The notes under the pieces were generated by a model. That model was not told the origin of the DNA and did not search any database. It saw nothing but the letters and a program-made list of their open reading frames with translations. Shown here piece after piece: positions 3,088-64,000 of a stretch of 64,000 nt of DNA. The position numbers and the translations under genes are program-made. Source of the stretch: a virus (lineage: Duplodnaviria; Caudoviricetes). How positions within the stretch are numbered: position 1 is the first letter of the stretch; every line of letters begins with the position of its first letter. The stretch covers positions 841 to 64,840 of the IMG/VR virus record IMGVR_UViG_3300035660_000007; one strand, 5' to 3'.

Positions 3088-3104
3088 CCTGGAATATACC
3101 GGCG
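3088..3104 (+). promoter_or_regulatory. Late-promoter motif CCTGGAATATACCGGCG
   Basis: Exact repeat, intergenic, upstream of the ParB-MTase/terS/terL genes. Confidence 0.75.
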
Positions 3105-4464: not shown

Positions 4465-5022
4465 ATGCCGCCAGGCCGCCAATACCCCCCCTATCCGCAC
4501 GACGTCCGCCTTGAGGCCGAGCGCATGTTCCTGGCCGGCGCCGGGCCGGGCGAGGTCGCCCGGGCGCTGAAGATCCGCTCGCGCTCGACCGTCTTCCGCT
4601 GGGCCGAGGCCGGGGGATGGGAGGCGAGGCGGGAGCAGGCCCGGGCGCGGGCCTCGCAGATGCAGGTGCGGCGCGCGGCCGACAACATCGCGGGGCGCAA
4701 TGATCGGTTCCGGCGCTTCTTCGAGACGGTGGCGACCTCGGCCTTCTCCGACCTGTTCGAGCGCGACGAACAGGGCAACATTGTGATGGGGCCGGACGGC
4801 GCGCCCAAGATGCGGCACTACAAGGAGGCGATAGACGCCGTCCGGGCGATAGTGCTGGCGCACGTTCAGATCCGGCTGATCGACGGGCAGGCCACGGAGC
4901 GCCAGGAGTTCCTGCTGCCGATGATCGAGATCGTCAGGGGGATGGCGCCGGAGGATCGCCAGGCCATGGGCAATGAGTGGATACGGCGTCTCGACAGCGC
5001 GAACGCGGAGGCGGAGGAATGA
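4465..5022 (+). CDS. terS: Terminase small subunit (putative)
   Basis: N-terminal HTH (GEVARALKIRSRSTVFRWAEAGGW); ATGA overlap with terL. Confidence 0.7.
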   Translation: MPPGRQYPPYPHDVRLEAERMFLAGAGPGEVARALKIRSRSTVFRWAEAGGWEARREQARARASQMQVRRAADNIAGRNDRFRRFFETVATSAFSDLFERDEQGNIVMGPDGAPKMRHYKEAIDAVRAIVLAHVQIRLIDGQATERQEFLLPMIEIVRGMAPEDRQAMGNEWIRRLDSANAEAEE

Positions 5023-9362: not shown

Positions 9363-9379
9363 CCTGGAATATACCGGCG
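9363..9379 (+). promoter_or_regulatory. Late-promoter motif CCTGGAATATACCGGCG
   Basis: Exact repeat ending 8 nt before the portal ATG. Confidence 0.75.
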
Positions 9380-13263: not shown

Positions 13264-13280
13264 CCTGGAATATACCGGCG
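13264..13280 (+). promoter_or_regulatory. Late-promoter motif CCTGGAATATACCGGCG
   Basis: Exact repeat directly before the AGGAG RBS of the prohead protease gene. Confidence 0.75.
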
Positions 13281-35717: not shown

Positions 35718-35734
35718 CCTGGAATATACCAGCG
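35718..35734 (+). promoter_or_regulatory. Late-promoter motif CCTGGAATATACCAGCG
   Basis: 13-bp core identical; upstream of the GT2-like/tail terminator/tail tube genes. Confidence 0.75.
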
Positions 35735-39754: not shown

Positions 39755-39771
39755 CCTGGAATATACCGACG
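39755..39771 (+). promoter_or_regulatory. Late-promoter motif CCTGGAATATACCGACG
   Basis: 13-bp core identical; upstream of the tape measure gene. Confidence 0.75.
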
Positions 39772-48100: not shown

Positions 48101-48463
48101 AACCGGCACTACTTCGGCAACGCGCAAGAGGCATCGATCTATTATGCCAGCGCGAGTGGCAAGCTGGTAATTTTCGCCGCGACTGCCTTGGTATATAACC
48201 TGGAAATCACCGATACATGCAACGTTGTGCTCGGCACGACGATCGGCACGAAGATAGGGACGGGAACCACGCAGAAACTAGGGTTCTGGAACCAGCCGCC
48301 GGTTGTGCAACCACTCCATGTCGCGGATGCGGTAGCAGGGGGCGTGAGCGGGGGAGATTTAGTGAGCCAGAGCGCAATAGAATCGAACTTTAGCAATGTG
48401 ACAGATGCAATAAACACTTTGCTCAGCAGGCTTGAGAGCATCGGGATACTAGCGACCAGTTAG
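45140..48463 (+). CDS. Large tail fibre / receptor-binding protein
   Basis: Two related N-terminal beta domains, PNMTVRV...RRDLL...DDARP module, G..L/I...W..L.(H/N)PG fibre repeats, C-terminal QKLGFW...INTLLSRLESIGIL. Confidence 0.8.
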   Translation: MSVGEILGAGALKRRADRQDRYRRESFPGYVQAISYRTGPSNAGVGSDYSLVVGGGNMLAIRVNITENAMGLMWAQLRIKTDGGGATGRLRIVMWPDMAGWNWKASALEHYPVFVDIDDPTLQSDWFEAGRLTAAYQAVTFRCRRGIPLPPAASNGCVWIVVDARLVVGNVWLDSVAAGTKQIATSADAGTTWATADGRAIWFESWYSDHGGTLDVALPSSWQRLDYNHTATGWVTLSAAAGRLAALRFTAPAGSPEIWQAHARMGSDATGATGAIGLEIWDDDAGEPGQRLASFNQVAAGRLRDIALCGGDRIVFAIPQGVALTPAADYWLVMNIQDTTGAVRLAAENLGWPTSASMDSTDDGDNWSGGVWRPWFEAYQVQPVEDVPDASGQSHLPGGEVALGRLGGSHFEHSVAGPVAGSYAYLGSQPAGEPENPTEGGSVLPDNLLADPQTVPNMTVRVRSGTFYLGRGRHWATTQNSPAFTPPMAGTRRDLLSIDEAGALSITQGPGGMTAPTYPLDELPICLVTLVAGQTEIIAQDIDDARPMVPERRGVSASNPQPVGLTAAPGATGYASDADHVHTLAVAAIGGVSQGAIIYGHDPGGGAEWTVLPHPGDPNRFLASTATEVGWRLLAASDLPAHGAAYHTGNVLPGANQDLGAYYMDVAQIAAPANPAAGTRRLFTDQATGELSVRTNAGTTVSLEAGATGIAHAILSLTHTDTTAAAVVRGDLMTGQVAAPNTKWTRLAHPGAGRLLTTPNANDVAWGLTAVRGSILVGNATPIWSLLANPGAVGSVLISGATDPSWSTTAQLARLGLGAAADASIPLTLLRANASQIQLLSASGQAASLMAYGTYGSLQMLANNYYTGAAYTAYDAASPMWAMVLNTSAAVDKFLLYRAPAGATATWTNVFAVGATGGVGVLLGLQIGTITPPTVAGLGVGTAPLGAGQGAFSSHVTLAGNLLSTAVGGTNLGSTTYELGHIYQAQDNRHYFGNAQEASIYYASASGKLVIFAATALVYNLEITDTCNVVLGTTIGTKIGTGTTQKLGFWNQPPVVQPLHVADAVAGGVSGGDLVSQSAIESNFSNVTDAINTLLSRLESIGILATS

Positions 48464-48472
48464 GAGGCGAGA

Positions 48473-48745
48473 ATGGCAGCAACACCTGAACAGAAACTGA
48501 CCGCCCTGCGCAGGGCCCTCGCGGCCGTGGAGCAACCGCTGCAGGCGGCTTTCGGGTTCATCGAAGCGGGGCAACTCTTCCTGCGCACGGATCGGCTGCC
48601 CCTGGACGCTGCCGAGAAGGGGACGGCGGCGATAACCGGTTGGGCCGAGATCCGACAGGGTATCCTCGCGGCGGCGGAGAAGCTGCCGCAGGAGGACCTG
48701 GCGCGGTGGGACCCCAAACCGGAGGAGGGCCCACCGGAACCATAA
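48473..48745 (+). CDS. Hypothetical protein, possible fibre chaperone
   Basis: GGAGG RBS; follows the fibre gene. Confidence 0.55.
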   Translation: MAATPEQKLTALRRALAAVEQPLQAAFGFIEAGQLFLRTDRLPLDAAEKGTAAITGWAEIRQGILAAAEKLPQEDLARWDPKPEEGPPEP

Positions 48746-48773
48746 AGCGAGGCCGTTTTAGGAGGAGGCAGGC

Positions 48774-49268
48774 ATGTCACGGCGAATCACGGACATCATA
48801 ATCCACCATTCGGCTGGCAACTGGGGGGACTTCGCGGCCATCGACGAGTGGCACAGCCAGCGCGGCTGGGCGGTGAAGCTGCCCGGGGGTCGGGTGGTGC
48901 ACTGCGGATACCATCTGCTGGTGCTGAACGGGTTCCGCACCTACGCGGCCTGGGCCGCGAACCGGCGGGCGCGGCGGTTCGACGGGTGGCTGCAGCCCGG
49001 GCGGCCCTACGAGGTGGTGGGCGCGCATTGCGCCGGCCACAACGCCCGCAGCATCGGGATCTGCCTGATCGGCAACCTCGACCTCCACCCCGCGACGACG
49101 CGCCAGTGGGCGGCGCTGGTGGATGCGTGCGCCCGACTCTGCCGGCGCTACGGCCTCCGCTCGGCGAACATCCACGGCCACCGGGAGTACGCGGCGAAGA
49201 CCTGCCCGGGCAGGAAGGTCTCGATCACGAACCTGCGGCGCGAGGTCGCGGCGGCGCTTGCAGGATAA
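48774..49268 (+). CDS. N-acetylmuramoyl-L-alanine amidase (Amidase_2 / T7-lysozyme-like endolysin)
   Basis: IIIHHSA...GYH...GAHCAGHNARSIGICLIGN...GHREYAAKTCPG. Confidence 0.95.
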   Translation: MSRRITDIIIHHSAGNWGDFAAIDEWHSQRGWAVKLPGGRVVHCGYHLLVLNGFRTYAAWAANRRARRFDGWLQPGRPYEVVGAHCAGHNARSIGICLIGNLDLHPATTRQWAALVDACARLCRRYGLRSANIHGHREYAAKTCPGRKVSITNLRREVAAALAG

Positions 49269-49307
49269 TCGGGGGGCCGCGCGGAAGACCGGCGCGGAGG
49301 TATAGCG

Positions 49308-49853
49308 ATGCCGAAGAAACGGAAGCCGAACGGTGCACCGCCCGCCGAGCCACCCGCCGACCCCGAAATGATGCTGGCGTTGAAGGGCCTGGATGAGATG
49401 GTTCTCAACTTCGACGGCAGCGAGCTCGCCGCTCGCCCCGTGGCGGAGACGCCCGTCGAGTGCTACCTGCGCATCCGAGCGTGGGCACAGCAGTTCGAGG
49501 CGCGGGAGGGCAGGGAGCCGACGAGGGCGGAGATCGAGGCATGGCCGCGCGCCAACGGCGCGTTCAGGCCGCTGACCGTCGGGCGCGTAGCCCTGCAGCT
49601 GCTCGAGGCCATGGGCGGCAGCGGGTGGGAGGATGCGCAGCTCATCACAAACCTGGGCAACAGGATCGCGCAGGCCGTCCGCCCGGGCGGAACCGGCCGC
49701 ATCCAGGTCAGCCCCGACGAGCTCCTGATGCTGCGCGCCGCCGGGGCGCGGAACGCGAAGAACATATCGGAGGGCCGACCGGGCCTGCTGGACTTCGTGA
49801 TGGGGCGGTTCTGGGACGTGATCGGGCCGCCGCGAAAGAAGGAGACGGAATAA
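49308..49853 (+). CDS. Hypothetical protein
   Basis: GGAGG RBS; in operon. Confidence 0.6.
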   Translation: MPKKRKPNGAPPAEPPADPEMMLALKGLDEMVLNFDGSELAARPVAETPVECYLRIRAWAQQFEAREGREPTRAEIEAWPRANGAFRPLTVGRVALQLLEAMGGSGWEDAQLITNLGNRIAQAVRPGGTGRIQVSPDELLMLRAAGARNAKNISEGRPGLLDFVMGRFWDVIGPPRKKETE

Positions 49854-49875
49854 CCGGCGGCGAAGGGACGCGCTG

Positions 49876-50031
49876 ATGATGGAAGGATTCGCCATTTCGA
49901 TCCCGCTGGCCGCTGCGATGATACTGGCGGCATGGATGCTGCGCGCGCCCCGCACGCGCCTGTCGGATACCCAGGACGCGGCCCCGCCGGAGCCGGAGAA
50001 GCGCGACAAGTGGCGGCTGGTGGAGGTGTGA
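49876..50031 (+). CDS. 51-aa single-TM peptide
   Basis: MMEGFAISIPLAAAMILAAWML...; fills the gap. Confidence 0.45.
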   Translation: MMEGFAISIPLAAAMILAAWMLRAPRTRLSDTQDAAPPEPEKRDKWRLVEV

Positions 50032-50032
50032 A

Positions 50033-51250
50033 ATGACCACGCCCAATTCGGCGACGCAGCAGTTCCTGCTGGGCCTCGCCGCGGCCAACCAGCCCGTAAC
50101 GCTAAGCGCCGACATCGACTGGCCCTGGGTTATGGCTCAGGCCCCCTACCTCTACGTCGACGGCATACTGGCCGTGCGCTGTGCGAGGGGCGAACTGGCT
50201 GGCGTCCCCGACTGGGTCCGCATGGACTGCGCGAAGACGCCCACCGTATGGAACGAGCATATGCGGGACTGGGATGGGATCGCCGCCGCGGCGATTGCGG
50301 CGCTCGACGAGTCGGGGCTGCCGTACGTCGTGCTCGGCTACCCGTTCGAGTATAGGACATTCAGGCCGGAATGCCACATGCGCCCGGCCACCGACCTCGA
50401 CGTGGCGGTGGATGCGCCGATCAAGCAGGTGGTGGAGGCGCTGGCCCCGCACGGATTTACCGCAGGGCTGGTCAGGAAGAACGGCCAACGGCAGGTCCTA
50501 ACTCTCGGCGAGGCCCTCAAGCGGCCCGTGCATATGCTCCACGAAAGCCGTCTGCTGCTCCACCGCGGGCGACCGTGCCTCGAGGTGTACTGCGCGCCCT
50601 GCCGTGCGCTCGGCGTACCCACCGCGTGGTTGGTCGAGGGGCGCGTGCGCGAGACATGCAGCGGGCTGTCCGCCTGGATCCCCGGCCCGGCCCGCGAGTT
50701 CTTCTCGTCCTCCTGGAGGGCCGGGCAGATCGTCGAGGGCGGCAGGACGCCCTTCTACATCTTCGGGTGCCTGCGGAACATCGCGCAGACCATTCCATGC
50801 GCATCTGCCGACGTCCAGGATGCGATCCTGGAGGCCGTGGGGACTGCATGGGCATCCGTGGCGGACGACCGGTGGATGAACGGCCTGTGGCGCGGCCACT
50901 GGTCGAGCGCGCGGAACATCCAGGTGATCTGGGCGTGGTTGGGCGAAGCCTACGTGGAACTGGAGGGATTGGGCGCGGAATTCCGCGGGATGCTTGATGC
51001 CGCCCTGCCCGCTCACTGCGGCCCGTTCCTCTCGGACTCGGGGGGCGCGCCCAACTGCAACCTCCTGTCCACCATCGTCTCGCCTCCGCCCTGGCAGGAG
51101 GCCGTCTTCGACCTGCATACGCTCCAGGATTGGGTCGCGCGCGGATATGCGGACGCGCCCGTGCTGCACCAGGGCGGCTGGGAGGTCGTGCGGGACCAGT
51201 TGCCGCCCGGTCTGCAGCCGGAGAAGGCGATCACGGCGGAGCAGACATGA
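50033..51250 (+). CDS. Nucleotidyltransferase-superfamily protein (NTP_transf_5-like)
   Basis: ALDESGLPYVVLG...RPATDLDVAV...EALAPHGF. Confidence 0.7.
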   Translation: MTTPNSATQQFLLGLAAANQPVTLSADIDWPWVMAQAPYLYVDGILAVRCARGELAGVPDWVRMDCAKTPTVWNEHMRDWDGIAAAAIAALDESGLPYVVLGYPFEYRTFRPECHMRPATDLDVAVDAPIKQVVEALAPHGFTAGLVRKNGQRQVLTLGEALKRPVHMLHESRLLLHRGRPCLEVYCAPCRALGVPTAWLVEGRVRETCSGLSAWIPGPAREFFSSSWRAGQIVEGGRTPFYIFGCLRNIAQTIPCASADVQDAILEAVGTAWASVADDRWMNGLWRGHWSSARNIQVIWAWLGEAYVELEGLGAEFRGMLDAALPAHCGPFLSDSGGAPNCNLLSTIVSPPPWQEAVFDLHTLQDWVARGYADAPVLHQGGWEVVRDQLPPGLQPEKAITAEQT

Positions 51251-52404
51251 TCTCGCTGGTGACATGGACGCTGAACGAGGCCGCGACGCTGCCGCGCATG
51301 GTCGAGTCGTTCGCGGGTCTCTACGACGACCTGGTCGTGCTGGACAGCGGGAGCGGCGACGGGACGCAGGACGTGGCGCGGGGCCTCGGGGCCAAGGTGT
51401 TCGATTACGCGGACCCCGAGCACCGCTGCCCCTGCCACCCCGTTATGGACTGGGCGAGGATGCAGAACGAGGCGGCGGCGCACGCGGCGGGCCCGGTCGT
51501 GATGGCCCTGGATGCGGACCTGCTGCTGACGGGCGAGGATGGCCGACCGCTGGCGCCGAGCGAACGCAACGTGCTACGGCAGCGGCTCGAGGCATGCGCG
51601 GAGGCACCGCACGGTCGAGGGACGCTCGCCATCACCGTCCTCGACCACTATCCCGACTTCGACACCAGCGCCCCTCCCATCTGCGACCGCCGCGCGGTGC
51701 TGGCATATCGCCCCGCGGACGACGGCACGTGGCAGGGGCGCGCGCGGCCCGTTCTTTCGGATGGGTCGCGTTGGCAGCATACGGACCCCTGGCCCTATGC
51801 TGCGCTGCACCACCATCTGCACCGGGGAGACGAGGCGGGGCGGGGGCGGGCGCGCCGCGAATATCTGCTGGCCCTTGCCTGCTACGGCGGCACGGCCGGC
51901 GAACTCGAGTGGAACATGCTGCACTGGCCAGCCGACGACATGATCTACGCCGCGCCCTACCAGCAAGCGCGCGTCGCGGCCCTCGTTGCGATGTGCAATG
52001 GGTCGGTGCTGGAGGTAGGGTGCGGCACGGGCTACATCGCGCGCCGCATCGTCCAGGCGGGCCACGCCGTCACGGGGCTGGATGCCAGCCTGATCGCCGT
52101 CGAGCGAGCGCGCATAGCCGGGGTCGAGGCCGTCGAGGGCTGGGCCGAGAACATCCCGTTCGATGACCATTCATTCGACACCGTACTGCTGGCCGACGTA
52201 CTGGAGCACCTGGTGGACCCCGGCAGGGCGCTGTCGGAGGCCTGCCGGGTCGCGCGCGCGCTGGTGCTGGCGAGCCTCCCGACCTTCCCCCCGCACGCCG
52301 CCGACCCCATGCACCGGTGGATCGCCGACTCATTCGTCATCACGGGCGCGCAGGTGCATCCCGTCGGCGAGTTCGTGCTGCTGGCACTGAGGCCCAAGCC
52401 ATGA
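51247..52404 (+). CDS. GT2-like glycosyltransferase fused to a SAM methyltransferase
   Basis: ISLVTWTLNEA...LDSGSGDGT...ALDAD; C-terminal VLEVGCGTG...AENIPF...DVLEHL. Confidence 0.9.
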   Translation: MISLVTWTLNEAATLPRMVESFAGLYDDLVVLDSGSGDGTQDVARGLGAKVFDYADPEHRCPCHPVMDWARMQNEAAAHAAGPVVMALDADLLLTGEDGRPLAPSERNVLRQRLEACAEAPHGRGTLAITVLDHYPDFDTSAPPICDRRAVLAYRPADDGTWQGRARPVLSDGSRWQHTDPWPYAALHHHLHRGDEAGRGRARREYLLALACYGGTAGELEWNMLHWPADDMIYAAPYQQARVAALVAMCNGSVLEVGCGTGYIARRIVQAGHAVTGLDASLIAVERARIAGVEAVEGWAENIPFDDHSFDTVLLADVLEHLVDPGRALSEACRVARALVLASLPTFPPHAADPMHRWIADSFVITGAQVHPVGEFVLLALRPKP

Positions 52405-53342
52405 TCGAACGCCGCACTGACCTGACCGTGGCGACGTTCGGCATCGGACGGTGGCCCGGCAACAAAGAATTGGCGCTGGCCTTCCTCGCAGACCTGCGAC
52501 TGGTCGGCGACGAGGTCGCGTACTTCGGCGTGGGCGACGAGGACGGGGCGGTCGAGGCGGTCCGGGAGGCGGGCGGCCACGCATGGGCCTTCGACTGGTA
52601 CCCCATCCCCCACTTCTACTGCCAGCAGATGATCGAGGCGGTCGAGACGCTGCCGCCGACGAACGTGCTGTACCTGGATTTGTGGGAGAGGCCGTCGCGC
52701 GGCCTGGCGGAGGAGATGCCGCGCCTCGTGGCGTCCGCCTCCCCTTACCGCCTGATCCCCCGCCTGTGGTATCAGGCGGATGGGGAGTTCATGGGCGTCT
52801 GCGGCGCGGCCCTGCGGATGTGGCGGCGCGGCAGCGTCTGGCACACCGGCAGGTTCGGGGCGGGGATAGAGCCGCGCGACCGCGCCGAATGGGACCTGGC
52901 CGCGACCGCGTGGCACCCGATCATCGGCTACCAGCCGACCGACCACGCTCACCTCGCGCAGTATCCGAGGGTTCGATTTGCCAAGTGCGTCCACGACATG
53001 CGCGCGCGCCGCACCGACCTCGCCAACATCCGGCACCTGCAGGGCGTCTACCCGCAGGTCTTCACGCCCGACGTGGTGCGGTGGATCGTGGACGTGCCGT
53101 ACGCGGACGAGGCGCTCCTGGTGCCCGGGACGCCGGAGCACGAGCGAATGCTACGCATCGTGCTGGCCGACCCGGACCCTGATGATGCCGTGCCGGAGGA
53201 CTGGCGCGACATCGTGGAGCAGGTGAAGGGTGGCGCGTTCGCCTTCGACTACCCGCGGCCGCCGGAGGGATGGACGCCGTGGCCGGCGGCGCTCGAGCAT
53301 CTCATCTACCGGGGCGCACTGCGCGAGGGAGGGAGCGCGTGA
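52401..53342 (+). CDS. Divergent GT-A-like hypothetical protein
   Basis: DGAVEAVREAGG...VLYLDLWER resemble GT2 segments; coupled between two GTs. Confidence 0.45.
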   Translation: MIERRTDLTVATFGIGRWPGNKELALAFLADLRLVGDEVAYFGVGDEDGAVEAVREAGGHAWAFDWYPIPHFYCQQMIEAVETLPPTNVLYLDLWERPSRGLAEEMPRLVASASPYRLIPRLWYQADGEFMGVCGAALRMWRRGSVWHTGRFGAGIEPRDRAEWDLAATAWHPIIGYQPTDHAHLAQYPRVRFAKCVHDMRARRTDLANIRHLQGVYPQVFTPDVVRWIVDVPYADEALLVPGTPEHERMLRIVLADPDPDDAVPEDWRDIVEQVKGGAFAFDYPRPPEGWTPWPAALEHLIYRGALREGGSA

Positions 53343-54577
53343 CCGATCGCCCCGAGCTGTTGTTCCGCGGCCTAATCGAGGGGCCGGCCGGCTACGACCG
53401 CCTGAACCGGCGCCTGCTCGAGGGGCTGCACCTCGCGGGCGTGCGCGTCCGCCTCTGGCCCGACCGGCAGCCGGTCGAGAACAGGATCGCGCTGGAGGCG
53501 GCGGATCGCCGACTCATAGATTCATGCCTGCACACTAAGGTCAGCGACCGCGCGCCCTTCCTGCACTCGACGATCGCCCACGGCTTCTACGCGGACGTGG
53601 CACGCTACCGCATCGGCCTGACGATGTGGGAGGCGCACGACACTATCCCGCCGGAGTTCGCCGAGCGCTGCAACCGCATGCACGAGATCTGGGTACCGTC
53701 CGAGCAGTGCCAGCGGACCTTCGCGGAAGGCGGGGTCAAGGTGCCGATCCTCCGCATGCCGCTGGGCGTGGACCTGGAGCAGTTCAACCCGAACGTCGAA
53801 CCCGTCTGGAATATCCTGGCCGGCACCAGGGGGTTCAGGGCGCTGTGCGTGGTCGGGCACAGCCACCGCAAGGGGTTCGCGGAGCTGCTGCGCGCCTGGT
53901 ATACGGCCTTCGACGGGTCGGACGACGCCACCCTGATCTACAAGGGTTACTTCGCTGGCAGTGCGTCGCGGTCAGCGCAGGCGCGGGTGATGTCGGACCT
54001 GCGGGCGGTCAAGGCCGAATTCGACCCCGGCCCGAACGGCCACGCCCACGTCGTGGCGCTGCCGGAGCTGCTGGACGAGGCCGACATGCCCGGCCTCTAC
54101 GCCTCCTGCGATCTCTTCGCGCTGATGACGCTGGGCGAGGGATTCTGCCTGCCGGCCCTGGAGGCGGCGGCCTGCGGGCGGCCCAGCCTGATTACGGCCG
54201 CCGGGGGCCATATGGACTATCTGCGGGACGATGCGGACCGCCCGGACGAGGCCAACGCCTTCCTGGTGCCGCCGCGGGGATGGGAGGCCGCCAGGGACGA
54301 CGTGGTGGACGCCTGCCATCTCTACAAGGGCCTGCGGTTCCCCATCATAGACGTGGCGCGTGCCGCGGCGACGTTGCGGTCGTGCTACGAGAACCGCGAC
54401 GAGGTGCTGCGGCGCGGGCGGCGGGCCCGCCGGACGGTGGAGGAGATGGGCTTGACCTGGCGGGCGCTGGGCGCGCGGGCGGCTGCCCGCGTCGCGGACG
54501 TGAACGCAGGGTTGCTGCTCGCCGGGGCCGCCACGCGCATCGAGCGCATGGCACTCACGAAAGAGCAGCTCCCATGA
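53339..54577 (+). CDS. GT4-family glycosyltransferase
   Basis: GLTMWE...EIWVPS...HRKG...LYASCDLF...GEGFCLPALEAAACG. Confidence 0.92.
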   Translation: MTDRPELLFRGLIEGPAGYDRLNRRLLEGLHLAGVRVRLWPDRQPVENRIALEAADRRLIDSCLHTKVSDRAPFLHSTIAHGFYADVARYRIGLTMWEAHDTIPPEFAERCNRMHEIWVPSEQCQRTFAEGGVKVPILRMPLGVDLEQFNPNVEPVWNILAGTRGFRALCVVGHSHRKGFAELLRAWYTAFDGSDDATLIYKGYFAGSASRSAQARVMSDLRAVKAEFDPGPNGHAHVVALPELLDEADMPGLYASCDLFALMTLGEGFCLPALEAAACGRPSLITAAGGHMDYLRDDADRPDEANAFLVPPRGWEAARDDVVDACHLYKGLRFPIIDVARAAATLRSCYENRDEVLRRGRRARRTVEEMGLTWRALGARAAARVADVNAGLLLAGAATRIERMALTKEQLP

Positions 54578-55065
54578 ACGAAAGCGGGTGCACCGTCCGC
54601 GGGCTGGTCGCGCGCTTGGCCGCGAAGCGGCCGCGGATGCGCCTACGCGCGCGTCCCGGCCCCCCGCTCTCGCCCGACGTCCCTTTCGCGGCGGTACTGC
54701 GCCTCATGGGGTCGGAGTTCCGCCCGATTGCCATGCGGCTCGAGCCGCATATGCTCCACACGGACGACCTCGCGCAGGTCGGGGCCGTCGAACTCCTGGA
54801 GGCCTACCCGGACGCCCGCCTGCCGCTGGATTGGGTACCCCCGGCGGACTGGCTCGACCTCGGGCCGCTCCTGCCCGTCAAGCCGTACCTGCGGAGCCGC
54901 GTGACGGGGGCGATGCGGCAGTATCTGCGCGACAAGGCGTTCCTGATCCGGTCGCCGGAGGAGATGCACGCCCCGCGGCCCGACTGCAGGGTCTTCACCG
55001 ATGTGCCGCCGGGGGACCTGCGGGAGGCAGGCGTGGACTGGTTCGGCGGCGAGCCAGACACCTAA
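54574..55065 (+). CDS. Protein with only a sigma70 region-2-like domain
   Basis: DDLAQVGAVELLEAY...PYLRSRVTGAMRQYLRDKAFLIRSP resembles regions 2.2-2.4 of FliA/SigB-type factors; ends about 30 aa later. Confidence 0.7.
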   Translation: MNESGCTVRGLVARLAAKRPRMRLRARPGPPLSPDVPFAAVLRLMGSEFRPIAMRLEPHMLHTDDLAQVGAVELLEAYPDARLPLDWVPPADWLDLGPLLPVKPYLRSRVTGAMRQYLRDKAFLIRSPEEMHAPRPDCRVFTDVPPGDLREAGVDWFGGEPDT

Positions 55066-55082
55066 CCTGGAATAGACCTGCG
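55066..55082 (+). promoter_or_regulatory. Late-promoter motif, variant CCTGGAATAGACCTGCG
   Basis: 12/13 match to the core; upstream of the holin-like gene. Confidence 0.7.
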
Positions 55083-55110
55083 GCCCCGCGCGGGCCGGAG
55101 GAGGTGCGCA

Positions 55111-55401
55111 ATGGATCTCAACGCCGTTCAGGCTTCCGCCATGGTCGGATACGCCGCGGCCGCCAACCTCCTGACCTACCTGGTCAGGCTGGGCTGGAGG
55201 GCCAGCGGGACGACCGCCAAGGTCCTGGCCTTCGCCCTGACCGTGGCGTGCGTGCTGGTCGGGATGTGGCAGCAGCACGTCGCCTTCACCGTAACGAACG
55301 CCGTCCCGATCATGTCGGGCGCGCTGATCCTCGGCCAGACCCTGTTCTACAAGTTCATAGGGCTGGACGGGCTGAAGACGGCCGGGGACGCCCCGGAATA
55401 G
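55111..55401 (+). CDS. Holin-like three-TM protein
   Basis: 96 aa, three hydrophobic segments, GGAGGAGG RBS. Confidence 0.65.
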   Translation: MDLNAVQASAMVGYAAAANLLTYLVRLGWRASGTTAKVLAFALTVACVLVGMWQQHVAFTVTNAVPIMSGALILGQTLFYKFIGLDGLKTAGDAPE

Positions 55402-55412
55402 AGGATGCCCAA

Positions 55413-55461
55413 GGCGGCGGGCCGCCTACCCCCTGGATTGCCCTTCCAGCGGCCCGCCGCC
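55413..55461 (+). terminator. Strong GC hairpin without a U-tract
   Basis: GGCGGCGGGCCG / CGGCCCGCCGCC 12-bp perfect arms plus CTGGA/TCCAG. Confidence 0.45.
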
Positions 55462-55495
55462 CCCGCACGGGGCCGAATCGCAAGGAGGAGGAGAG

Positions 55496-55780
55496 ATGAA
55501 CCTGAACCTGTTCTCGCTGCTGGCGCAGATAGCCAAGCTGGGCGCGGCCGTGCAGGCGGCGAAGCCGTGGCTGGAGGCCCTCGACCGGAACGACTACGAG
55601 GCGGCCGCCAGCATAGCCGAGTCCCACGCCGACATCCAGAAGGCGATGGCCGACGCGCTGGTCGGCCTGCCGGATGACCTGCGGCCGCTCGCCGAGGCCC
55701 ACAAGCACGAGATGCTGGTGTGGGCCATGTACGTCGTGGACCGCATCGTGCCCGAGACGGAGATCCTGAAGGTCATGTAG
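55496..55780 (+). CDS. Hypothetical helical protein
   Basis: AAGGAGGAGG RBS. Confidence 0.7.
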   Translation: MNLNLFSLLAQIAKLGAAVQAAKPWLEALDRNDYEAAASIAESHADIQKAMADALVGLPDDLRPLAEAHKHEMLVWAMYVVDRIVPETEILKVM

Positions 55781-55790
55781 GCGGGCCGCC

Positions 55791-55850
55791 TTTCGCGCCA
55801 GGATGGTCCAGGCTGGGCCGTTCGGGCGCGGGCGGGGAATCAGTCGGCCG
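55791..55850 (+). repeat. Dispersed non-coding element, copy C
   Basis: Matches copies A and B; lies between convergent operons. Confidence 0.8.
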
Positions 55851-55887
55851 GGGCGCTTCGCGCGCGCTACGGCCAGCGCAGCGGGCA

Positions 55888-55909
55888 GCGCGGCCAGTCC
55901 TGGCCGCGT
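55888..55909. terminator. Hairpin at the convergence of the two operons
   Basis: GCGCGGCCA-gtcc-TGGCCGCGT. Confidence 0.45.
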
Positions 55910-55911
55910 CT

Positions 55912-56442
55912 TCAGCCTTCCCGTTCAGGTTCGACGACCACGTCGCCCATGAGCCCCAGCGCCTCCCGCAACCGCTCAACGCCTGTGCGAACCAGGTAAC
56001 AGGCGTAGTTCACGGAGATACCCATGCGTTGCGCAGTATCCGTGAATGAATAACCGGCGGCACAGAGTGCCAACGCCCTCTTGCGCTTGCGGGCGGCAGC
56101 CGACTCTGCCTCGAACTCTATCCGCCAGCACCGCTCGCGGAAGGCGGTCGGCCCTGCCAAGGCACTGTAGTAGCCTATGAAGTCCGACCAGGTGGCGAAC
56201 CCTTCCTTGTGCGCCTCGTTAGTCAGTTCGGGATTCGTGCAGAGATGGCCGGGATAAGCCTCGTAGCGGACAGCCAGAATCCGTAGGAAAGCGAACGGCT
56301 CGGCGAAGGGTGCGATGCGCGCCTCTACCTCCATCCCAGGATGCAGGCGTTTCCGCTTCGACCGGCGGCGCGTTACGGTCTTCACGCCCTCGCATATCTT
56401 GTCGGCCATCGCGTCGCGGAACAGAATGAAAGTGCGGCTCAT
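55912..56442 (-). CDS. ASCH domain fused to a sigma region-4 / LuxR-like HTH
   Basis: ILFRDAMADKICEGVKTVTRR...EAHKEGF...WRIEF ASCH; RKRALALCAAGYSFTDTAQRMGISVNYACYLVRTGVERLREAL. Confidence 0.75.
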   Translation of the reverse strand: MSRTFILFRDAMADKICEGVKTVTRRRSKRKRLHPGMEVEARIAPFAEPFAFLRILAVRYEAYPGHLCTNPELTNEAHKEGFATWSDFIGYYSALAGPTAFRERCWRIEFEAESAAARKRKRALALCAAGYSFTDTAQRMGISVNYACYLVRTGVERLREALGLMGDVVVEPEREG

Positions 56443-56494
56443 CCCGCCTCCATCAGCGCCGCCGCGCCCCAGACCAGGATTTGCACGAGGGCTG

Positions 56495-56722
56495 TCATGG
56501 CCGCCCCATCCACCTGTCAATCGCGTCGTCTATGTTATCCAAAGCCGCGTTCTGTTTTTCGGTTACGTGTTCGTGCTCTTCAATCCAGCCAGCCATTGAC
56601 TCCAGCGTTGCCTGCACTGACACCGCAAACTCCTCGGCCCGCTCCGGCAAGTCGTCTAGTTTGCGCAGCAGGTTTTCGGCGTCAGCCAGAGCATCTTCCC
56701 AGCCGCAGTCGTTACACATCAT
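56495..56722 (-). CDS. Small acidic hypothetical protein
   Basis: GGAGG RBS; ATGA coupling. Confidence 0.65.
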   Translation of the reverse strand: MMCNDCGWEDALADAENLLRKLDDLPERAEEFAVSVQATLESMAGWIEEHEHVTEKQNAALDNIDDAIDRWMGRP

Positions 56723-57051
56723 CCCACCTCCGCCGCAATCATAGCCAGCGTCAGGACGTGGCCAGCCTGGTCGCCGTGAATCGTAGTCCAGCCTTCGCAC
56801 TTCGCAAAGTCCAGAAGCCAATGCACAGCCGCCACTATAGCACCTACCGCTGGCATCGCAACCACCAGGGCGACAAGTCCGCCGTGTATCAGGGCATGGG
56901 CGGTCAGCCAGTAGAACCAATTCACCTGCGGCTTCTGGCCTGGGGGTGGTTGAAGCGTAGTATGTCGGTTCTTCCCTCGCGCCACCGCATCGGACTGCAG
57001 GGCGAAGTCGGCGAGGGCATGAGCACAGAGTAGCCAGAAGAAAGTCGTCAT
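56719..57051 (-). CDS. DUF3307-family membrane protein
   Basis: AHALADFALQ...LTAHALIH...HWLLDFAK...DQAGH. Confidence 0.85.
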   Translation of the reverse strand: MTTFFWLLCAHALADFALQSDAVARGKNRHTTLQPPPGQKPQVNWFYWLTAHALIHGGLVALVVAMPAVGAIVAAVHWLLDFAKCEGWTTIHGDQAGHVLTLAMIAAEVG

Positions 57052-57054
57052 TAT

Positions 57055-57402
57055 TCATCCCACCTCCACCGGCAACTTGGCTTGCTTGATAAACCGCTTC
57101 AAGTCTCGCAGAAGGCGCTGCTCGTTAGCGCCTTGAGGATGCGCGGCGATTGTTCCGCCCCCCGCCTGGCAACAACCTGCAGGCCACCCGTTCCACTCAA
57201 CGTAAATGCCGAAGGGCGGGATGTCCTTCTGCTCCCGGTTGCTGGGGTTCATCGCAACGCCCCACTTATTTCCGCCTGTGCTTGGCACCTCGAAGCGAAG
57301 CAGACCATCCTTGTCCAGGTGATCCGCTGCAGGCGACAGACCAGCGGCTATTGCTGCCTCCGAGCACATCAACCAGACCTGGCACATTCGGTCAGGCTTC
57401 AC
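57055..57402 (-). CDS. Hypothetical protein
   Basis: GTGA coupling; VEWNGWPAG motif. Confidence 0.6.
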   Translation of the reverse strand: MKPDRMCQVWLMCSEAAIAAGLSPAADHLDKDGLLRFEVPSTGGNKWGVAMNPSNREQKDIPPFGIYVEWNGWPAGCCQAGGGTIAAHPQGANEQRLLRDLKRFIKQAKLPVEVG

Positions 57403-58454
57403 GGCGCAACCTCCATCTCCAACCGCCCCTGTGCCCGCTCGCGGGCGAGGCGCCCGCTCAATACTGTCCATGCTCTCGCAGCCACTTGCGGAACGACTCC
57501 TTCGCCGATTGCGCGCAGTCGGTCCACCCTAAAGGCCAGCCCATCAACCACTCTACCCACGTCGGGTTCAGTTTTCCACCAACCTGCGCCCTCAACTGGC
57601 TCTGGCCCTGACCGTGCGAGTTCTTGGTCAGCGAAGTAGGCGTTCGGAACCGCACTGCCGTCCTCAAGTCCTCGCCTCCCTCGCCGTATTTCCCCGCCCC
57701 GAAGCCGTCCGACTGCCTCGGCGTCGGCCACCGTTTCACTTCCTGCTCCAATACCCTGCCACCCCTGCTCTCTATGCGGCTGCCTAGGTTGCTGCCCCGT
57801 AGGGTAGGCCACATTCGCACATTCCCCTGATCCGGCAGGTAGAAGTCCGCAGGTTTCCGCTGACTGCCCTTCGCTCCTGTCACTCCACCCTTGCCGTCGT
57901 TTGCTCTGGGAGTGCGCCAGTATGAAAAGCCTTCGCCGCAAGTGCGGCGCTCCGACTCCTGCCGCCGAGAACACATCCCATTCCGCATCATACCCGACCG
58001 AGGCCAGCGAACCGAGGACTTCTCCGAAGGCGCTGCGAAGGAGCCCTGGCACATTTTCCAGGAAGACGAAGCGGGGTCGAACTTCGCAAACCACTCTGAA
58101 GATGTCGGGCCATATCCAGCGTTCGTCGGCTGTGCCTCTCCGCTTGCCTGCGACGGAGAAGGGCTGGCAGGGTGGCCCGGAAGAGACAATATCCACTTTG
58201 CCGCGCCACGGCTTGCCGTCGAAGGTGGTAACGTCATCCCAGATAGGAGCCGCATCCAGGGCTTCGTCCGCCATGCGCGCAACAAGGACTGCGGCTGAAT
58301 GGGCTTCTCTCTCGATGTGACAGACAGTCCGGTATCCGGGTATGGCGAGTTTGATTCCAAGTTCCAGTCCGCCGACGCCGGCGCAGATTGCAAGACCGTT
58401 GAGGGTATGTAGAGCCAACTCATCGTCGGTCCTCCGCCATAAGTCGTTCATCAT
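57399..58454 (-). CDS. C5-cytosine DNA methyltransferase, alpha-type polypeptide (motifs I-VIII and X)
   Basis: ICAGVGG, GPPCQPFS, FLENVPG, PHLRRRLFI, RLRAIGEGVVP; motif IX not evident in this frame. Confidence 0.93.
   Translation of the reverse strand: MMNDLWRRTDDELALHTLNGLAICAGVGGLELGIKLAIPGYRTVCHIEREAHSAAVLVARMADEALDAAPIWDDVTTFDGKPWRGKVDIVSSGPPCQPFSVAGKRRGTADERWIWPDIFRVVCEVRPRFVFLENVPGLLRSAFGEVLGSLASVGYDAEWDVFSAAGVGAPHLRRRLFILAHSQSKRRQGWSDRSEGQSAETCGLLPAGSGECANVAYPTGQQPRQPHREQGWQGIGAGSETVADAEAVGRLRGGEIRRGRRGLEDGSAVPNAYFADQELARSGPEPVEGAGWWKTEPDVGRVVDGLAFRVDRLRAIGEGVVPQVAARAWTVLSGRLARERAQGRLEMEVAP
57458..58423 (-). CDS. Nested alternative-frame beta-type polypeptide of the C5 MTase (motif IX)
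   Basis: Own GGAGG RBS 8 nt upstream; W(P/R)TP repeats; GGKLNPTWVEWLMGWPLGWT motif IX-like. Confidence 0.75.
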   Translation of the reverse strand: MSWLYIPSTVLQSAPASADWNLESNSPYPDTGLSVTSREKPIQPQSLLRAWRTKPWMRLLSGMTLPPSTASRGAAKWILSLPGHPASPSPSQASGEAQPTNAGYGPTSSEWFAKFDPASSSWKMCQGSFAAPSEKSSVRWPRSGMMRNGMCSRRQESERRTCGEGFSYWRTPRANDGKGGVTGAKGSQRKPADFYLPDQGNVRMWPTLRGSNLGSRIESRGGRVLEQEVKRWPTPRQSDGFGAGKYGEGGEDLRTAVRFRTPTSLTKNSHGQGQSQLRAQVGGKLNPTWVEWLMGWPLGWTDCAQSAKESFRKWLREHGQY

Positions 58455-58503
58455 CCCGCCTCCATCTCCAGCCGCCCCTGCGCGCGCTCAAGCGCGATGC
58501 GCT

Positions 58504-59388
58504 TCATGCTACGACCCCAACTGGCCGGGTCTTCACGAATGGCAACGCCGCACACTGAAACCCTGCTGCGCCCTTGTGTCCGCCGCCGCCATGCCTCTTC
58601 GCAATCTCCGCGCAGTCCACGCCTTTCACGGAGTAGAGGCTGACTGTCCAGGTCGCTCCGTCGAAGTAAAAGGGCATGAGCAAGTCATACTGTTCGGCCT
58701 TGTGGCCAAAGAACTCTGACCCGCACAAGCCATTGTTGCACGCAAGCGCACGGTGGCCCTCAAAGACCGTCTCGAATGCAAGGGCTTTGACCTTATCCGC
58801 GTGCTGCCACCTGCGGTAGGCCATGACTATCTTGCCTTCCTCCCGCATTTCTCGAACGCCAGGACTAGCGTCCCAGTTGAGATAATCCCATAGACGAGCG
58901 CGCGGGTTTGTATCGTGTGCAAGGAGGCCAGCACAGAATTCTCGCGTCGCCTCGCCATACTGAAAGCGCCAAACGTCGCGGTCGCCAATCAGCCGCGTAG
59001 CAAGAGGTGCACAGTCTGCGCCTACGGCAACGCCGTCCAGGTTATCAGGCGTCTGCGTGTAGAGGTAAGTCAGGACGCAGGCTGCTATCCCATCCTCGCG
59101 CAGGCCAGGCACGTGCAACGGGATATTCGCCTCCACGACCTCGCGCTGGAACCGGTCAAGGGCCGTTTTGTGATGGTCAATCCAGACAACAGTCCGACAT
59201 GCGAGTTTCACCAGGGTATCGGTTGGTACAGAGTAATCCACCAGCCAAACCTCTGCATACTGCAGGGCGATTGCCAGCGGGAACTCGTCTTTGTAGTCAA
59301 TCTCGTAGAGTTCCGCCGATGGGCAGAGACGCCTTACCCAGTAAGCAGCACACCTTCCGTCAAGGTCGTTGTGATGAAAACAAATCAT
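58504..59388 (-). CDS. DHH/DHHA1 phosphoesterase
   Basis: HHNDLDG...LVDYS...WIDHHKT...DRDVWRF...GGGGHKGAAGF. Confidence 0.92.
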   Translation of the reverse strand: MICFHHNDLDGRCAAYWVRRLCPSAELYEIDYKDEFPLAIALQYAEVWLVDYSVPTDTLVKLACRTVVWIDHHKTALDRFQREVVEANIPLHVPGLREDGIAACVLTYLYTQTPDNLDGVAVGADCAPLATRLIGDRDVWRFQYGEATREFCAGLLAHDTNPRARLWDYLNWDASPGVREMREEGKIVMAYRRWQHADKVKALAFETVFEGHRALACNNGLCGSEFFGHKAEQYDLLMPFYFDGATWTVSLYSVKGVDCAEIAKRHGGGGHKGAAGFQCAALPFVKTRPVGVVA

Positions 59389-60192: not shown

Positions 60193-60887
60193 TTCGGCAT
60201 CTCCATCTCGACTGCTTGCGCAGCCAGCGCTGCAAAGTCAATGGTGCTAGCCGCCCTCGCCGCCCTCGCCGCCGCCCACGCCGCCGCCCACGCCGCCCTC
60301 GCCGCCGCCCACGCCGCCGCCCCCGCCGCCCACGCCGCCGCCCACGCCGCCGCCCACGCCGCCGCTCTCGGCGCCGCCCACGCCGCCCACGCCGCCGCCC
60401 ACGCCGCCCACGCCGCCGCCCCCGCCGCCTCCTCCCCGTCAGTCTGCGTTGCTCCCTTCCTCAGCAACGCCAGTATACTCTCGACGGCCTCGCGCACCGC
60501 CGAGAGGTCGGGGTCGCCCGCGTTCACAGCCGCACTGGCCAGCAGAGCGTAACGCAGTTGAACCCGCAGCCGGATGCGCTCGTCAACATACCAGGACGGC
60601 AGCGGTATCTCATGGGCGTCCCGGAGCAAATAGCAGCCTACTTTGAGCGGACTGTCAACCGCGACCTCGCCCTCAACCTCCCACGCGCGGCATTCTGGCC
60701 CATACTCACCGTCCATCGGGTCTTGCAGCAAGCCCACGTTCAGGTCGCGGTAGCAGTGCAGTAACCCGACCTCGCATAGCACTGTGCCGCGTTGCCCCTC
60801 CGGTATCTCGTGCGTCGCGCCCTCGGCCCATTGGAGGTCGCTGTGCTTGCTCTTGCCTGTCGTCGTCGTCAGTTTGTAGAGTTTCAT
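60189..60887 (-). CDS. Phage protein with an AAW low-complexity repeat tract
   Basis: MKLYKLT...LCEVGLLHCY...WEVEG N-domain; AAWAAWAAAW tract. Confidence 0.8.
   Translation of the reverse strand: MKLYKLTTTTGKSKHSDLQWAEGATHEIPEGQRGTVLCEVGLLHCYRDLNVGLLQDPMDGEYGPECRAWEVEGEVAVDSPLKVGCYLLRDAHEIPLPSWYVDERIRLRVQLRYALLASAAVNAGDPDLSAVREAVESILALLRKGATQTDGEEAAGAAAWAAWAAAWAAWAAPRAAAWAAAWAAAWAAGAAAWAAARAAWAAAWAAARAARAASTIDFAALAAQAVEMEMPK
60251..60430. repeat. Coding 9/12-bp tandem repeat (CCACGCCGC / CCACGCCGCCGC)
   Basis: Direct inspection; encodes AAW/AAAW units on the minus strand. Confidence 0.9.
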
Positions 60888-62511: not shown

Positions 62512-63003
62512 TCACGGGACGGCCTCCTTGAGGGCGGGTTGATGTCGTAGCCTATATCTCTCGCGCCAGAACTTTTCGACCTGGTGATCAACAAGGTGAG
62601 ACACACCATGACGCGCCTGCGCCGGAATGAGAACTTGGCACCCTTCCTGTCCCACCCCTATCAGGCCAATCCCGTTCCAGTCCGTCTTCGGAACCCGACT
62701 GACAACCACGTCTAGAGGCACGGCCACGTAAGACTCATCCACATGCGGGCGATTCTCACGGGCCTGCCGCAGAACTGCCGCGACTTTGGATAGTTTCAAC
62801 TCGACTGCGATGATGCGGCGATGCAGAGGCCTCCAGCCCTTCCGTCGGTTCTCGCGTCTGTTCACCATATCCCAGTCCAACTCGCAGCCGATGAGGTCAC
62901 AGTAAGACCACAGGAGCACTTCGCGTTTGACGAGGAGTCCCTGCGCCTGCAGCCAGGCCACGACTATCGGTGTCATGTCGCGTTCTCGTGCGAAGGGCTT
63001 CAC
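62512..63003 (-). CDS. PD-(D/E)XK-fold protein (MmcB-like)
   Basis: ERDM...REV...DLIG...AVELKLSK...QAREN...SYVAVP...GIGLI. Confidence 0.7.
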
Positions 63004-64000
63004 GGCACAACCTCCACCGGCAACTTGCCCTGCGCCCGCTCGCGGGCGATGCGCTCGTCTATCATAGGCAGGTATTCCTGGGCAATCTCGATACCCACCC
63101 AGCGCCGGCCAAGCCGTTCCGCCACGGCCAGCGTGGTGCCCGAACCGGCGAAGGGGTCAAGCACTATGCCCGGTTGCGTTTCCTCGCAGCCGCACTGGCA
63201 CGAGGGACGCCAGCCGATGGTTTCCCGCACGCTCACGGTATCCCCGGCTGTACGACAAACCCCATCTATCGTTTCCTGGCTACCCGCCCGGATCTCGCGC
63301 GAGGCCATACGGGGATGGGCGCGGCCATCACCCACTATCTTGCCGCGATCAGCAAGCGCCCTGACCCACCCCGCCCCGCACTTCCCGCACACCTTCGGCG
63401 GGCAGCCCGCCAGGATGCAGCGGCGGGGGAGTTCTTCGGGGAAGACTGCGAAATGCGCGCCCGGATATGGCTGCGTCGCAAACCGCCACACGCTCCGGCA
63501 GTTGCGGCCCGCGTCAGGATTCACGAACGTTTTCGCCCTATACCAGGACGGGAACTCCGGGGAATCGTCAGCCGCATACTTGCTGCCCTTGGCATTCCCC
63601 TGTGTATGCCGGCCCGTCGCATTGCGGGAATCGGCGAGCGTCAACGGGGAAAGCGGCTCCCTTATCGCATCCGCGTCATACCAGTATTTTGCGCTCTTCG
63701 TCAGCAGCAGGATATATTCGTGGCTCAAGGTTGGGCGATCCTTCACCGACTCGGGCATCGGGTTCGGCTTGTCCCACACAATCACGCTCCGCACCCACCA
63801 CCCGTCCGCCTGCGCCGCCAGTGCCACGCGGAAGGGAATCAGGGCCATGTCCTTCGGTTTGGTGCCATTACCCGTCGTAGCCATCGGGGGGCGACCACCG
63901 TGCTCCTCCCACGCATCACGCGCGTAACGCTCCTTGCGCCGCGTCCGCTGCTTGCCGTTCCGCGCGCCATAGTTTCCCCAACTGCCCAGATACGAATCCC
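63000..64000 (-). CDS. N4C/N6A DNA methyltransferase, 5'-partial (continues beyond the window)
   Basis: GDSY...[16 protein letters not shown]...HEY...HFAVFP...[11 protein letters not shown]. Confidence 0.92.

Follow-up and report, generated by a model that had tools for sequence, protein, structure and literature searches.

A sigma region 2-only protein and a box repeated before late genes in a siphovirus-like phage from sediment

A short sigma region 2 gene at the end of a late gene block

IMG/VR record IMGVR_UViG_3300035660_000007 is a 64.8-kb virus sequence, classed as linear, and the window analyzed here is a stretch of 64,000 nucleotides that covers nearly all of it. Its plus strand carries a gene for a 163-amino-acid (aa) protein, P0001, that resembles region 2 of sigma-70-family factors. 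This gene, a 13-bp box repeated upstream of late genes, and a gene on the opposite strand whose product, P0002, combines an ASCH domain with a helix-turn-helix (HTH) are the subjects of this report (Table 1). As judged by PHROG and Pfam scans the genome is siphovirus-like, tape-measure gene included, and the GC content of the window is 60 to 72%. Late genes, the P0001 gene among them, make up the plus-strand block from about 3.1 to 55.8 kb: ParB-methyltransferase comes first, followed by terminase, portal, head protease, major head protein, tape measure, and endolysin, with glycosyltransferase and methyltransferase genes after these. Convergent to it, from 55.9 kb, is a minus-strand block of lower GC content, which contains the ASCH-HTH gene together with DUF3307, C5 DNA methylase, DHH phosphoesterase, RusA, and HNH genes and one further methylase gene.

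The P0001 frame has no internal stop, and its ATG overlaps the stop codon (ATGA) of the GT4 glycosyltransferase gene that precedes it. Over the whole frame, third-position GC is 0.91 (0.89 in codons 1 to 44 and 0.92 in codons 45 to 163), and since it is high throughout, the whole frame looks coding. The public gene call is a 119-aa protein (P0003) that omits the N-terminal 44 residues; because codons 1 to 44 have this high third-position GC and the residues that they encode align with those of the homolog P0004 described below, the 163-aa form is the likely product. Its layout comprises a basic N-terminal arm (residues ~1 to 30), sigma domain 2 (residues ~31 to 131), in which roughly 13 to 20 residues are inserted between regions 2.2 and 2.3, and then an acidic tail (residues 132 to 163).

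Table 1. Positions of the sigma region 2 gene, the ASCH-HTH gene, and the boxes in the window
Feature	Positions	Strand	Basis or context
P0001, 163-aa sigma-70 region 2-only protein	54574..55065	+	Pfam, profiles, BLASTP, homolog
Region 2.1-2.2 of P0001 (residues 52-80), including DDLAQVGAVELLEAY	54727..54813	+	Sigma70_r2 profile positions 12-40
Region 2.3-2.4 of P0001 (residues 102-122), PYLRSRVTGAMRQYLRD	54877..54939	+	Sigma70_r2 profile positions 49-69
P0002, 176-aa ASCH + HTH fusion, last gene of minus-strand operon	55912..56442	-	Pfam, structure search
ASCH (PUA-like) domain of P0002, residues ~6-118	56089..56427	-	Atlas structure search
C-terminal HTH of P0002, residues ~117-164	55951..56094	-	HTH_23; Sigma70_r4/r4_2 sub-threshold; fold matches
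CCTGGAATATACC, exact	3088..3100	+	49 nt before ParB-methyltransferase/terminase block
CCTGGAATATACC, exact	9363..9375	+	12 nt before portal gene
CCTGGAATATACC, exact	13264..13276	+	16 nt before head protease gene
CCTGGAATATACC, exact	35718..35730	+	13 nt before ORF 35744-36475
CCTGGAATATACC, exact	39755..39767	+	26 nt before tape-measure gene; nearest copy upstream of P0001
CCTGGAATAGACC, one mismatch	55066..55078	+	Starts at the base after the P0001 stop; 32 nt before membrane-protein gene 55111-55401

Homology of P0001 to sigma region 2

The Pfam model Sigma70_r2 (PF04542), whose cut-off is 24 bits, matches residues 52 to 79 of P0001 at 18.7 bits (E value of 0.0015), and a six-frame scan found both halves of the profile in order (Table 1), which exceeds what chance would give. 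A full HMMER scan of 1.84 billion representative sequences gave a single true relative, the 144-aa protein P0004 (43% identical; E value of 1.1e-14), which was found on one 3,891-bp contig; the same scan also returned a spurious repeat protein (P0005), nine short stretches of which fell on P0001 residues 102 to 123. P0004 passes the Sigma70_r2 cut-off, with 29.7 bits and an E value of 5.6e-7 over profile positions 12 to 67 of 71. A profile built from the two proteins matched chain 8x6g_H of the PDB over residues 53 to 152 (E value of 3.2e-4), an entry titled as the Staphylococcus aureus SigB open complex, and the next matches were the FliA and SigE N-terminal chains at E values of about 0.7. 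In NCBIfam the best match of P0004 was to the SigB/F/G subfamily, and five of the five families listed for P0001 at E values of 1 or less were sigma factors. A search of metagenome contigs confirmed one of 151 pattern matches, a full-length 230-aa SigF-like sigma (L001) that is not the P0004 locus. By BLASTP, P0001 is 38% identical to it (E value of 5e-8) and P0004 45% identical (E value of 1e-13), in an alignment that spans the DL.Q.G helix, GAMRxYLRD, and LIRxP. The feature search of the language-model Atlas placed P0001 beside short sigma region 2 clusters with a score of 0.95.

P0001 shares with SigB, SigF, SigG, and FliA the DL.Q.G pattern in region 2.2, the G-x-[IM]-[KR]-x-Y-[LM]-R-D pattern in region 2.4, and the I-R-x-P that opens region 3.0; PYLRSRVTGAMRQYLRD aligns to FLVPTVIGEIKRYLRDK of SigB and to the SigF-like sigma, and the LIRSP that follows it is the start of region 3.0. 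Between P0001 and P0004 the DL.Q.G pattern is invariant, and the 2.3-2.4 helix (GAMRQYLRD and GAMRHYMRD, respectively), together with the tyrosine that precedes it, is as conserved as the docking helix. We take P0001 to be a genuine sigma-70 region 2 protein by homology, and its nearest full-length sigmas are of the SigB/SigF/FliA type (group 3).

The AlphaFold model of P0001, built from the two-row alignment, is poor (pLDDT of 51.7), and the fold evidence for the protein is weak for that reason. Foldseek gave no match at an E value of 0.001 or less in the PDB or BFVD; even so, nine of the 12 first listed rows for P0001 were sigma chains. VIA, which is independent of Foldseek, placed sigma factors in eight of its 12 top rows for P0001, the best being ShbA (Z of 6.7, rmsd of 3.6, 78 residues aligned).

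The family appears to be very small in every collection searched. A word-index search returned P0001 itself alone among 338 candidates, and a search with the P0001-P0004 profile returned those two alone among 2,825 candidates. None of 111 pattern matches in viral contigs and none of 114 in genome contigs was confirmed. In tblastn searches of 50,697 phage records, P0004 gave nothing and P0001 gave one match at an E value of 0.1, to fliA of Microcystis phage MaAM05.

Regions 3 and 4 are missing from the protein. P0001 has no Pfam match to either and ends ~35 residues past region 2.4, just beyond the I-R-x-P, whereas group 3 sigmas have 230 to 260 aa, contain regions 3 and 4, and need a −35/−32 element. 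P0001 also differs from them in its Arg/Pro-rich N-terminal arm and in the insertion between regions 2.2 and 2.3. Over the six frames of the whole record, Sigma70_r3 gave no matches at E values of 10 or less, and Sigma70_r4 and r4_2 gave sub-threshold matches in P0002 (13.7 and 13.1 bits) plus a 12.8-bit match in the terminase open reading frame (ORF). By sequence, P0001 is a region 2-only protein and not a complete sigma-70-family factor, which would also have region 4 for −35 recognition and beta-flap binding. P0004, with 144 aa, has the same short form, which is therefore an architecture conserved in the family as opposed to a recent truncation. An earlier reading of this DNA, made from the sequence only, had described a 163-aa product with the sigma70 region 2 pattern and no regions 3 or 4; that description stands, the strings that it quoted being present, P0004 passing the Pfam model, and the joint profile matching SigB.

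It might be argued that P0001 is a relic, either the decaying fragment of a captured host sigma factor or a region 2-like helical protein in a nontranscriptional role, for example with the neighboring glycosyltransferase or lysis genes. Although the odd position of the gene, between glycosyltransferase genes and the gene for a holin-like membrane protein, would suit such an origin, as would the family of two members and the low confidence of the model, the frame is intact with a strong coding-type base composition, P0004, at 43% identity, retains the short form with the region 2 motifs best conserved, and no remnant of region 3 or 4 lies downstream of P0001 in any frame. We consider a relic or an unrelated use improbable.

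The gene sits inside the late region, as the sequence-only reading had cautioned: between the tape-measure gene and P0001 the genes leave no gaps, the apparent ones being filled by small ORFs. Two uncalled small plus-strand ORFs (48474-48745 and 49876-50032) occupy such places around the endolysin region, the second encoding a short, apparently membrane-spanning peptide. On the 3′ side of P0001, the small plus-strand ORF 55111-55401 looks by eye like a holin-like membrane protein, and, taken with the second of these small ORFs, it makes the lysis genes seem scattered. A read-through fusion of P0001 with ORF 55111, which is in the same frame, was considered and set aside, as the latter looks by eye like a membrane protein and not like a sigma region. 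A scan of positions 48000 to 58000 for sigma-70-type promoters and terminators yielded nothing useful near the genes.

A single-box motif upstream of late genes

The box CCTGGAATATACC is present in five exact copies and one copy with one mismatch, all on the plus strand, and there is a two-mismatch match on the minus strand. Allowing up to two mismatches, seven matches were observed versus 0.42 expected, and none of 100 shuffles reached seven. All six plus-strand boxes end 12 to 49 nt upstream of late-gene starts. Their upstream flanks showed no conserved −35 element and no second conserved element of another kind. On the downstream side the box is followed by NNCG, with G at position 17 in six of six copies and a purine at position 18 in six of six; were transcription to begin at position 17 or 18, the leaders would be 9 to 46 nt long, three of them beginning GAGG or GGAG.

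The extended −10 element is TGnTATAAT, and the box, when read as TGG-AATATA, resembles it in spacing. Its core, GGAATA, resembles the −10/−12 boxes of SigB and SigF, which likewise begin with GG: SigB-type −10 boxes include GGGTAT, GGGAAA, and GGTAAG (PMC8346170), and Synechocystis SigF needs GGTAA at −12 (PMC2532724). A sigma-54 reading of the box was rejected by eye, the GG-to-GC spacing being off by one and the center A/T-rich. The box with NNCG (CCTGGAATATACCNNCG) was found in 45 IMG/VR contigs in one copy each, as might be expected by chance, and this motif search of IMG/VR contigs brought no related phage to light. The box also recurs in partial form, CCTGGAATAGTAAC, at 2084-2097 on the plus strand, at the start of the ParB-like ORF 2061-2687.

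An Arg/Pro-rich arm precedes the sigma domain in both members of the family (residues 1 to 30 of P0001, positions 54574-54663, and residues 12 to 22 of P0004). The arm of P0004 contains RRPGRPRR, which we take to resemble the core of an AT-hook (GRP motif). Such an arm might contact the A/T-rich center of the box.

P0001 as a possible reduced late sigma factor

We suggest, at somewhat less than an even chance, that P0001 is a reduced late sigma factor of the phage, one that would act like gp55 of phage T4, would have arisen independently from a group 3 sigma, and would read a box without a −35 element while feeding its own synthesis. The region 2.2 helix of sigma factors binds the beta-prime clamp helices of RNA polymerase. 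By the proposed mechanism, helix 2.2 of P0001 would dock there on the core polymerase of the host, and the 2.3-2.4 helix, perhaps aided by what is left of region 3.0 and by the basic arm at the N terminus, would read the single-box late promoters CCTGGAATATACC-NN-CG. Transcription would then start at the invariant G (motif position 17) or at the purine after it. That P0001 reads the CCTGGAATATACC sites is plausible as an inference from sequence, since boxes without a −35 element suit a sigma without region 4 and since the GGAATA core resembles the boxes of its nearest sigma relatives. Lying in the late transcription unit, the gene would amplify its own synthesis after a first supply of P0001 from read-through or from an unseen promoter. 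Many alternative sigmas amplify their own synthesis. Specific precedents are Sig7-Sig8 of Tn916, which exert positive feedback on their own promoter (bioRxiv 10.64898/2026.10.01.756105), and the autoregulation of SigF (PMC2532724).

The closest functional analog would be found in T4, whose gp55 is the standard example of a sigma that retains region 2 and no more and whose late promoter box is TATAAATA. Both gp55 and P0001 are small phage proteins limited to sigma region 2, and both genomes have several single boxes without a −35 element before virion genes, the T4 late motif being of 8 bp (PMC3152322). The two proteins differ in that no relation is detectable between their sequences: hhalign of the P0001-P0004 profile against gp55 gave a probability of 0.1% and an E value of 0.53. 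The phage pair is also closer to the canonical region 2, with Sigma70_r2 scores of 18.7 bits for P0001 and 29.7 bits for P0004 versus 13.1 bits for gp55. Unlike T4, the phage is siphovirus-like, and the P0001 gene lies in the late unit. No counterparts of the co-activator gp33 or the sliding clamp gp45, with which gp55 works, turned up in the record, which is 72% complete and in which no profile search was aimed at them. By sequence, P0001 is not of T4 gp55 stock and appears to be derived from a SigB/SigF/FliA-type sigma of group 3.

Several observations weigh against a promoter-reading role. P0001 alone falls below the Sigma70_r2 cut-off (18.7 versus 24 bits), has no PHROG match at an E value of 10 or less, and has weak fold matches throughout (none by Foldseek at 0.001 or less, and VIA Z scores under 7). 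The gene has no promoter of its own and is translationally coupled to the last of the run of glycosyltransferase and methyltransferase genes; because it is coupled in this way to late genes, the first supply of the protein is unexplained. Because the invariant box, at 13 to 17 bp, exceeds the footprint of a sigma domain 2, its reader may be another protein, or another protein may assist in the reading. The CheckV completeness of the record is 72%, and a full sigma, a partner, or some other late activator could be encoded in the missing ~28% of the genome. The conservation of the 2.4 helix says little, since the family has two members, and the link between the gene and the motif rests on one genome.

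P0001 might instead occupy RNA polymerase without reading any promoter. As a decoy of the core polymerase or a displacer of sigma, it would place its 2.2 helix on the beta-prime clamp helices late in infection and shut off sigma-dependent transcription of the host or of early phage genes, and the box would be read by something else. phiEco32 gp79 reportedly displaces the host sigma. Mycobacteriophage D29 gp53 displaces SigA (bioRxiv 10.64898/2026.10.05.756390), and D29 gp53-gp52 and phiEco32 gp79 are, as P0001 may be by analogy, small phage proteins at the sigma site of the host polymerase. The D29 protein, however, is an HTH protein of Pfam PF25684 (same source), while P0001 has no such Pfam match and is by its sequence a true region 2 homolog. 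Gene order suggests that P0001 is expressed with the late genes and not before, which would suit a decoy, and the core-binding DL.Q.G pattern is invariant in P0001 and P0004; yet the 2.3-2.4 helix and its preceding tyrosine, which a pure decoy would not need, are equally conserved. Acting late, a decoy would stop late transcription as well, unless some other late factor escaped it, and the promoters of this genome, with no −35 element, match a sigma that lacks region 4. We regard a decoy as unlikely, though as the likeliest of the alternatives.

Sigmas that are reduced or split are already known from phages and mobile elements (T4, SPO1, SigO-RsoA, and Tn916). What would be new here is that the protein was derived independently from a sigma of the SigB/F type, belongs to a rare family of two members, and is paired with a 13-bp single-box promoter set. 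No description of a region 4-less phage sigma of this sort was found in the open-access literature searched. If the reduced late sigma interpretation is correct, this would be a second, separately arisen reduced sigma, of SigB/SigF type and from a siphovirus-like phage of a high-GC sediment host, and the solution of dropping region 4 and using one long −10-type box would be a convergent one. It would also offer a small, sequence-tractable domain 2 for the study of −35-independent initiation, with the six near-identical boxes as ready test templates. Only two sequences of the family turned up among the 1.84 billion representatives, which makes it very rare.

The ASCH-HTH gene on the opposite strand

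The gene for P0002 lies on the opposite strand 847 bp beyond the stop codon of P0001 and ends a tightly coupled minus-strand operon in which a C5 DNA methylase gene lies upstream, in agreement with the sequence-only reading, which had placed a facing gene about 850 bp away as the last of a minus-strand operon. A 75-aa ORF (56495-56720, minus strand) and a hydrophobic mini-ORF of 19 codons (56439-56498, minus strand) lead into the P0002 start codon through a chain of ATGA overlaps.

The Pfam ASCH model (PF04266) matched P0002 below its cut-off (13.3 versus 21.2 bits). The Atlas holds a model of the exact P0002 sequence (pTM of 0.73), and this matched ASCH clusters with TM scores, by row, of 0.84 and 0.86 over 102 to 106 aligned residues; predicted models stand on both sides of this comparison, and one row meets the bar of the service for naming. 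These models support the assignment of residues ~6 to 118 to a predicted ASCH domain. The C-terminal 76 residues matched HTH_23 at 24.8 bits (cut-off, 24.6), Sigma70_r4 at 13.9 bits, and r4_2 at 13.8 bits, the last two under their cut-offs, and the six-frame matches to r4 and r4_2 fall within the HTH given in Table 1. By sequence the HTH reads as a generic one. A single-sequence model of P0002 is poor (pLDDT of 50.9) and is confident only for residues 112 to 162. In a wide fold search with this confident part, ~23 of the 30 top rows were, by their entry titles, sigma-4 domains or the sigma-like domain of PhyR, at Z scores of 6.4 to 8.3, a range in which, according to the tool, values under 8 may reflect a mere common arrangement. 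They included SigL (Z of 8.1), sigma-28 (Z of 7.9; rmsd of 1.2 over 48 residues), and SigH (Z of 7.8; rmsd of 0.7 over 47 residues), and the remaining top-30 rows were LuxR/GerE-type regulators, DeoR, an archaeal factor, and a small terminase. In its predicted fold, the HTH looks most like sigma domain 4.

The fusion of an ASCH domain with an HTH that had been proposed for this gene is borne out by structure, and the HTH string quoted for it is present with a sigma-4-like fold, but its identification as sigma region 4 by sequence is not, HTH_23 being the best match. No relatives of P0002 were found: neither of two matches in viral contigs was confirmed, the word index returned the protein itself alone among 178 candidates, phmmer gave no match in the PDB at E values of 10 or less, and the Atlas feature search gave no usable match.

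An arrangement in which P0001 supplies domain 2 and the HTH of P0002 supplies domain 4 in trans, with the ASCH domain coupling late transcription to a nucleic acid or modified-base signal, would have parallels in other systems. Sigma functions are spread over two small mobile-element proteins in SigO-RsoA of Bacillus subtilis, Sig7-Sig8 of Tn916 (bioRxiv 10.64898/2026.10.01.756105), and gp33-gp34 of SPO1, and T4 gp55/gp33 is a further split sigma. Apart from the 12.8-bit match in the terminase ORF, the only region 4-like signals in the record are in P0002, the fold matches of its HTH are mostly sigma-4 domains, and its place in an operon on the early side means that P0002 could be present first. 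However, sequence makes the HTH generic, with HTH_23 best, sigma-4 models sub-threshold, and no PDB sequence match, while Z scores of 6 to 8 are in the tool's range of common arrangements. The box promoters lack a second conserved element for a domain 4 to read, and P0001 and P0002 are on opposite strands, in different operons, and unlike in third-position GC (0.91 versus 0.75). Unlike the two-subunit sigmas, the phage has this one candidate partner and no two-box promoter was seen. The earlier proposal, in which the ASCH-HTH protein would provide a sigma 4 in trans, therefore went unsupported, the HTH being generic by sequence and the promoters lacking a second box, and we judge a split sigma to be quite unlikely.

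Another role for P0002 is at hand. HTH-ASCH fusions are frequent, which has been taken to suggest that ASCH binds modified DNA (PMC7641849), and a C5 DNA methylase is encoded in the operon. The fusions of defense and modification loci are like P0002 in having ASCH joined to an HTH beside DNA-modification genes; those described in that paper carry an XRE-type HTH, whereas P0002 has a C-terminal HTH_23/sigma-4-like HTH and no detectable sequence relatives. P0002 is most likely a separate DNA-binding regulator, or a modified-DNA reader, of the early, methylase-rich operon. A combination of the two ideas, in which P0001 would read the box and early-made P0002 would dock on the beta flap, so that late transcription is licensed only on DNA marked by the four methyltransferases of the phage, seems more remote still than the plain split sigma; if it were true, promoter use would be coupled to the DNA modification state.

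Relatives of the phage and other features of the genome

Among cultured phages, the best portal match has 27.5% identity across 87% of the query, and no match attains 60% identity; since no cultured phage is close, the search points to no host. A scan for tRNA genes found none, and blastn of window positions 54000 to 57000 against phages gave no match. The same phage is present, nearly identical, in several sediment metagenomes, and its contigs from four sediment runs differ little; no RNA run was listed among those that contain it. Contigs from three other sediment runs cease to match at exactly 56500, past which two of the three carry unlike sequence, and positions 56775-56925 are without cover in any of the four sediment runs compared. 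The genes upstream of the ASCH-HTH gene (the small ORF and DUF3307) appear to be swapped in variants, with P0002 and the end of the late block kept.

Four DNA methyltransferase genes are present (3150-4463, 8196-9356, 57399-58454, and 63000-63884), one of which includes a fused ParB-like domain, and another ParB-like gene stands on its own at 2061-2687. A 62-nt repeat of 68 to 84% identity (57395-57456, 58444-58505, and 62996-63057) falls at the 3′ ends and junctions of minus-strand genes of the methyltransferase region. A GCC-rich tandem array on the minus strand (60204-60474; 18 overlapping copies at a spacing of 9 or 12 nt) falls within a minus-strand ORF, where its translation would be a glycine-rich repeat. 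Directly past the late block, in the convergent gap, an 81-nt stretch (55787-55867) is 73% identical to positions 68-148, with GGGGAATCAGTCGGCCG in common; the pair may represent paired terminators or another repeated end element.

The large terminase ORF (4977-7868, plus strand) encodes 963 aa, with PHROG matches in residues ~33 to 242 and 675 to 958 and ~430 residues without a match between these two blocks. High third-position GC begins only at 7011 in this ORF, and the weak Sigma70_r4-type HTH match falls in the gap, at window positions 6066-6140. An intein may account for the gap, as may the insertion of a homing-endonuclease-like domain.

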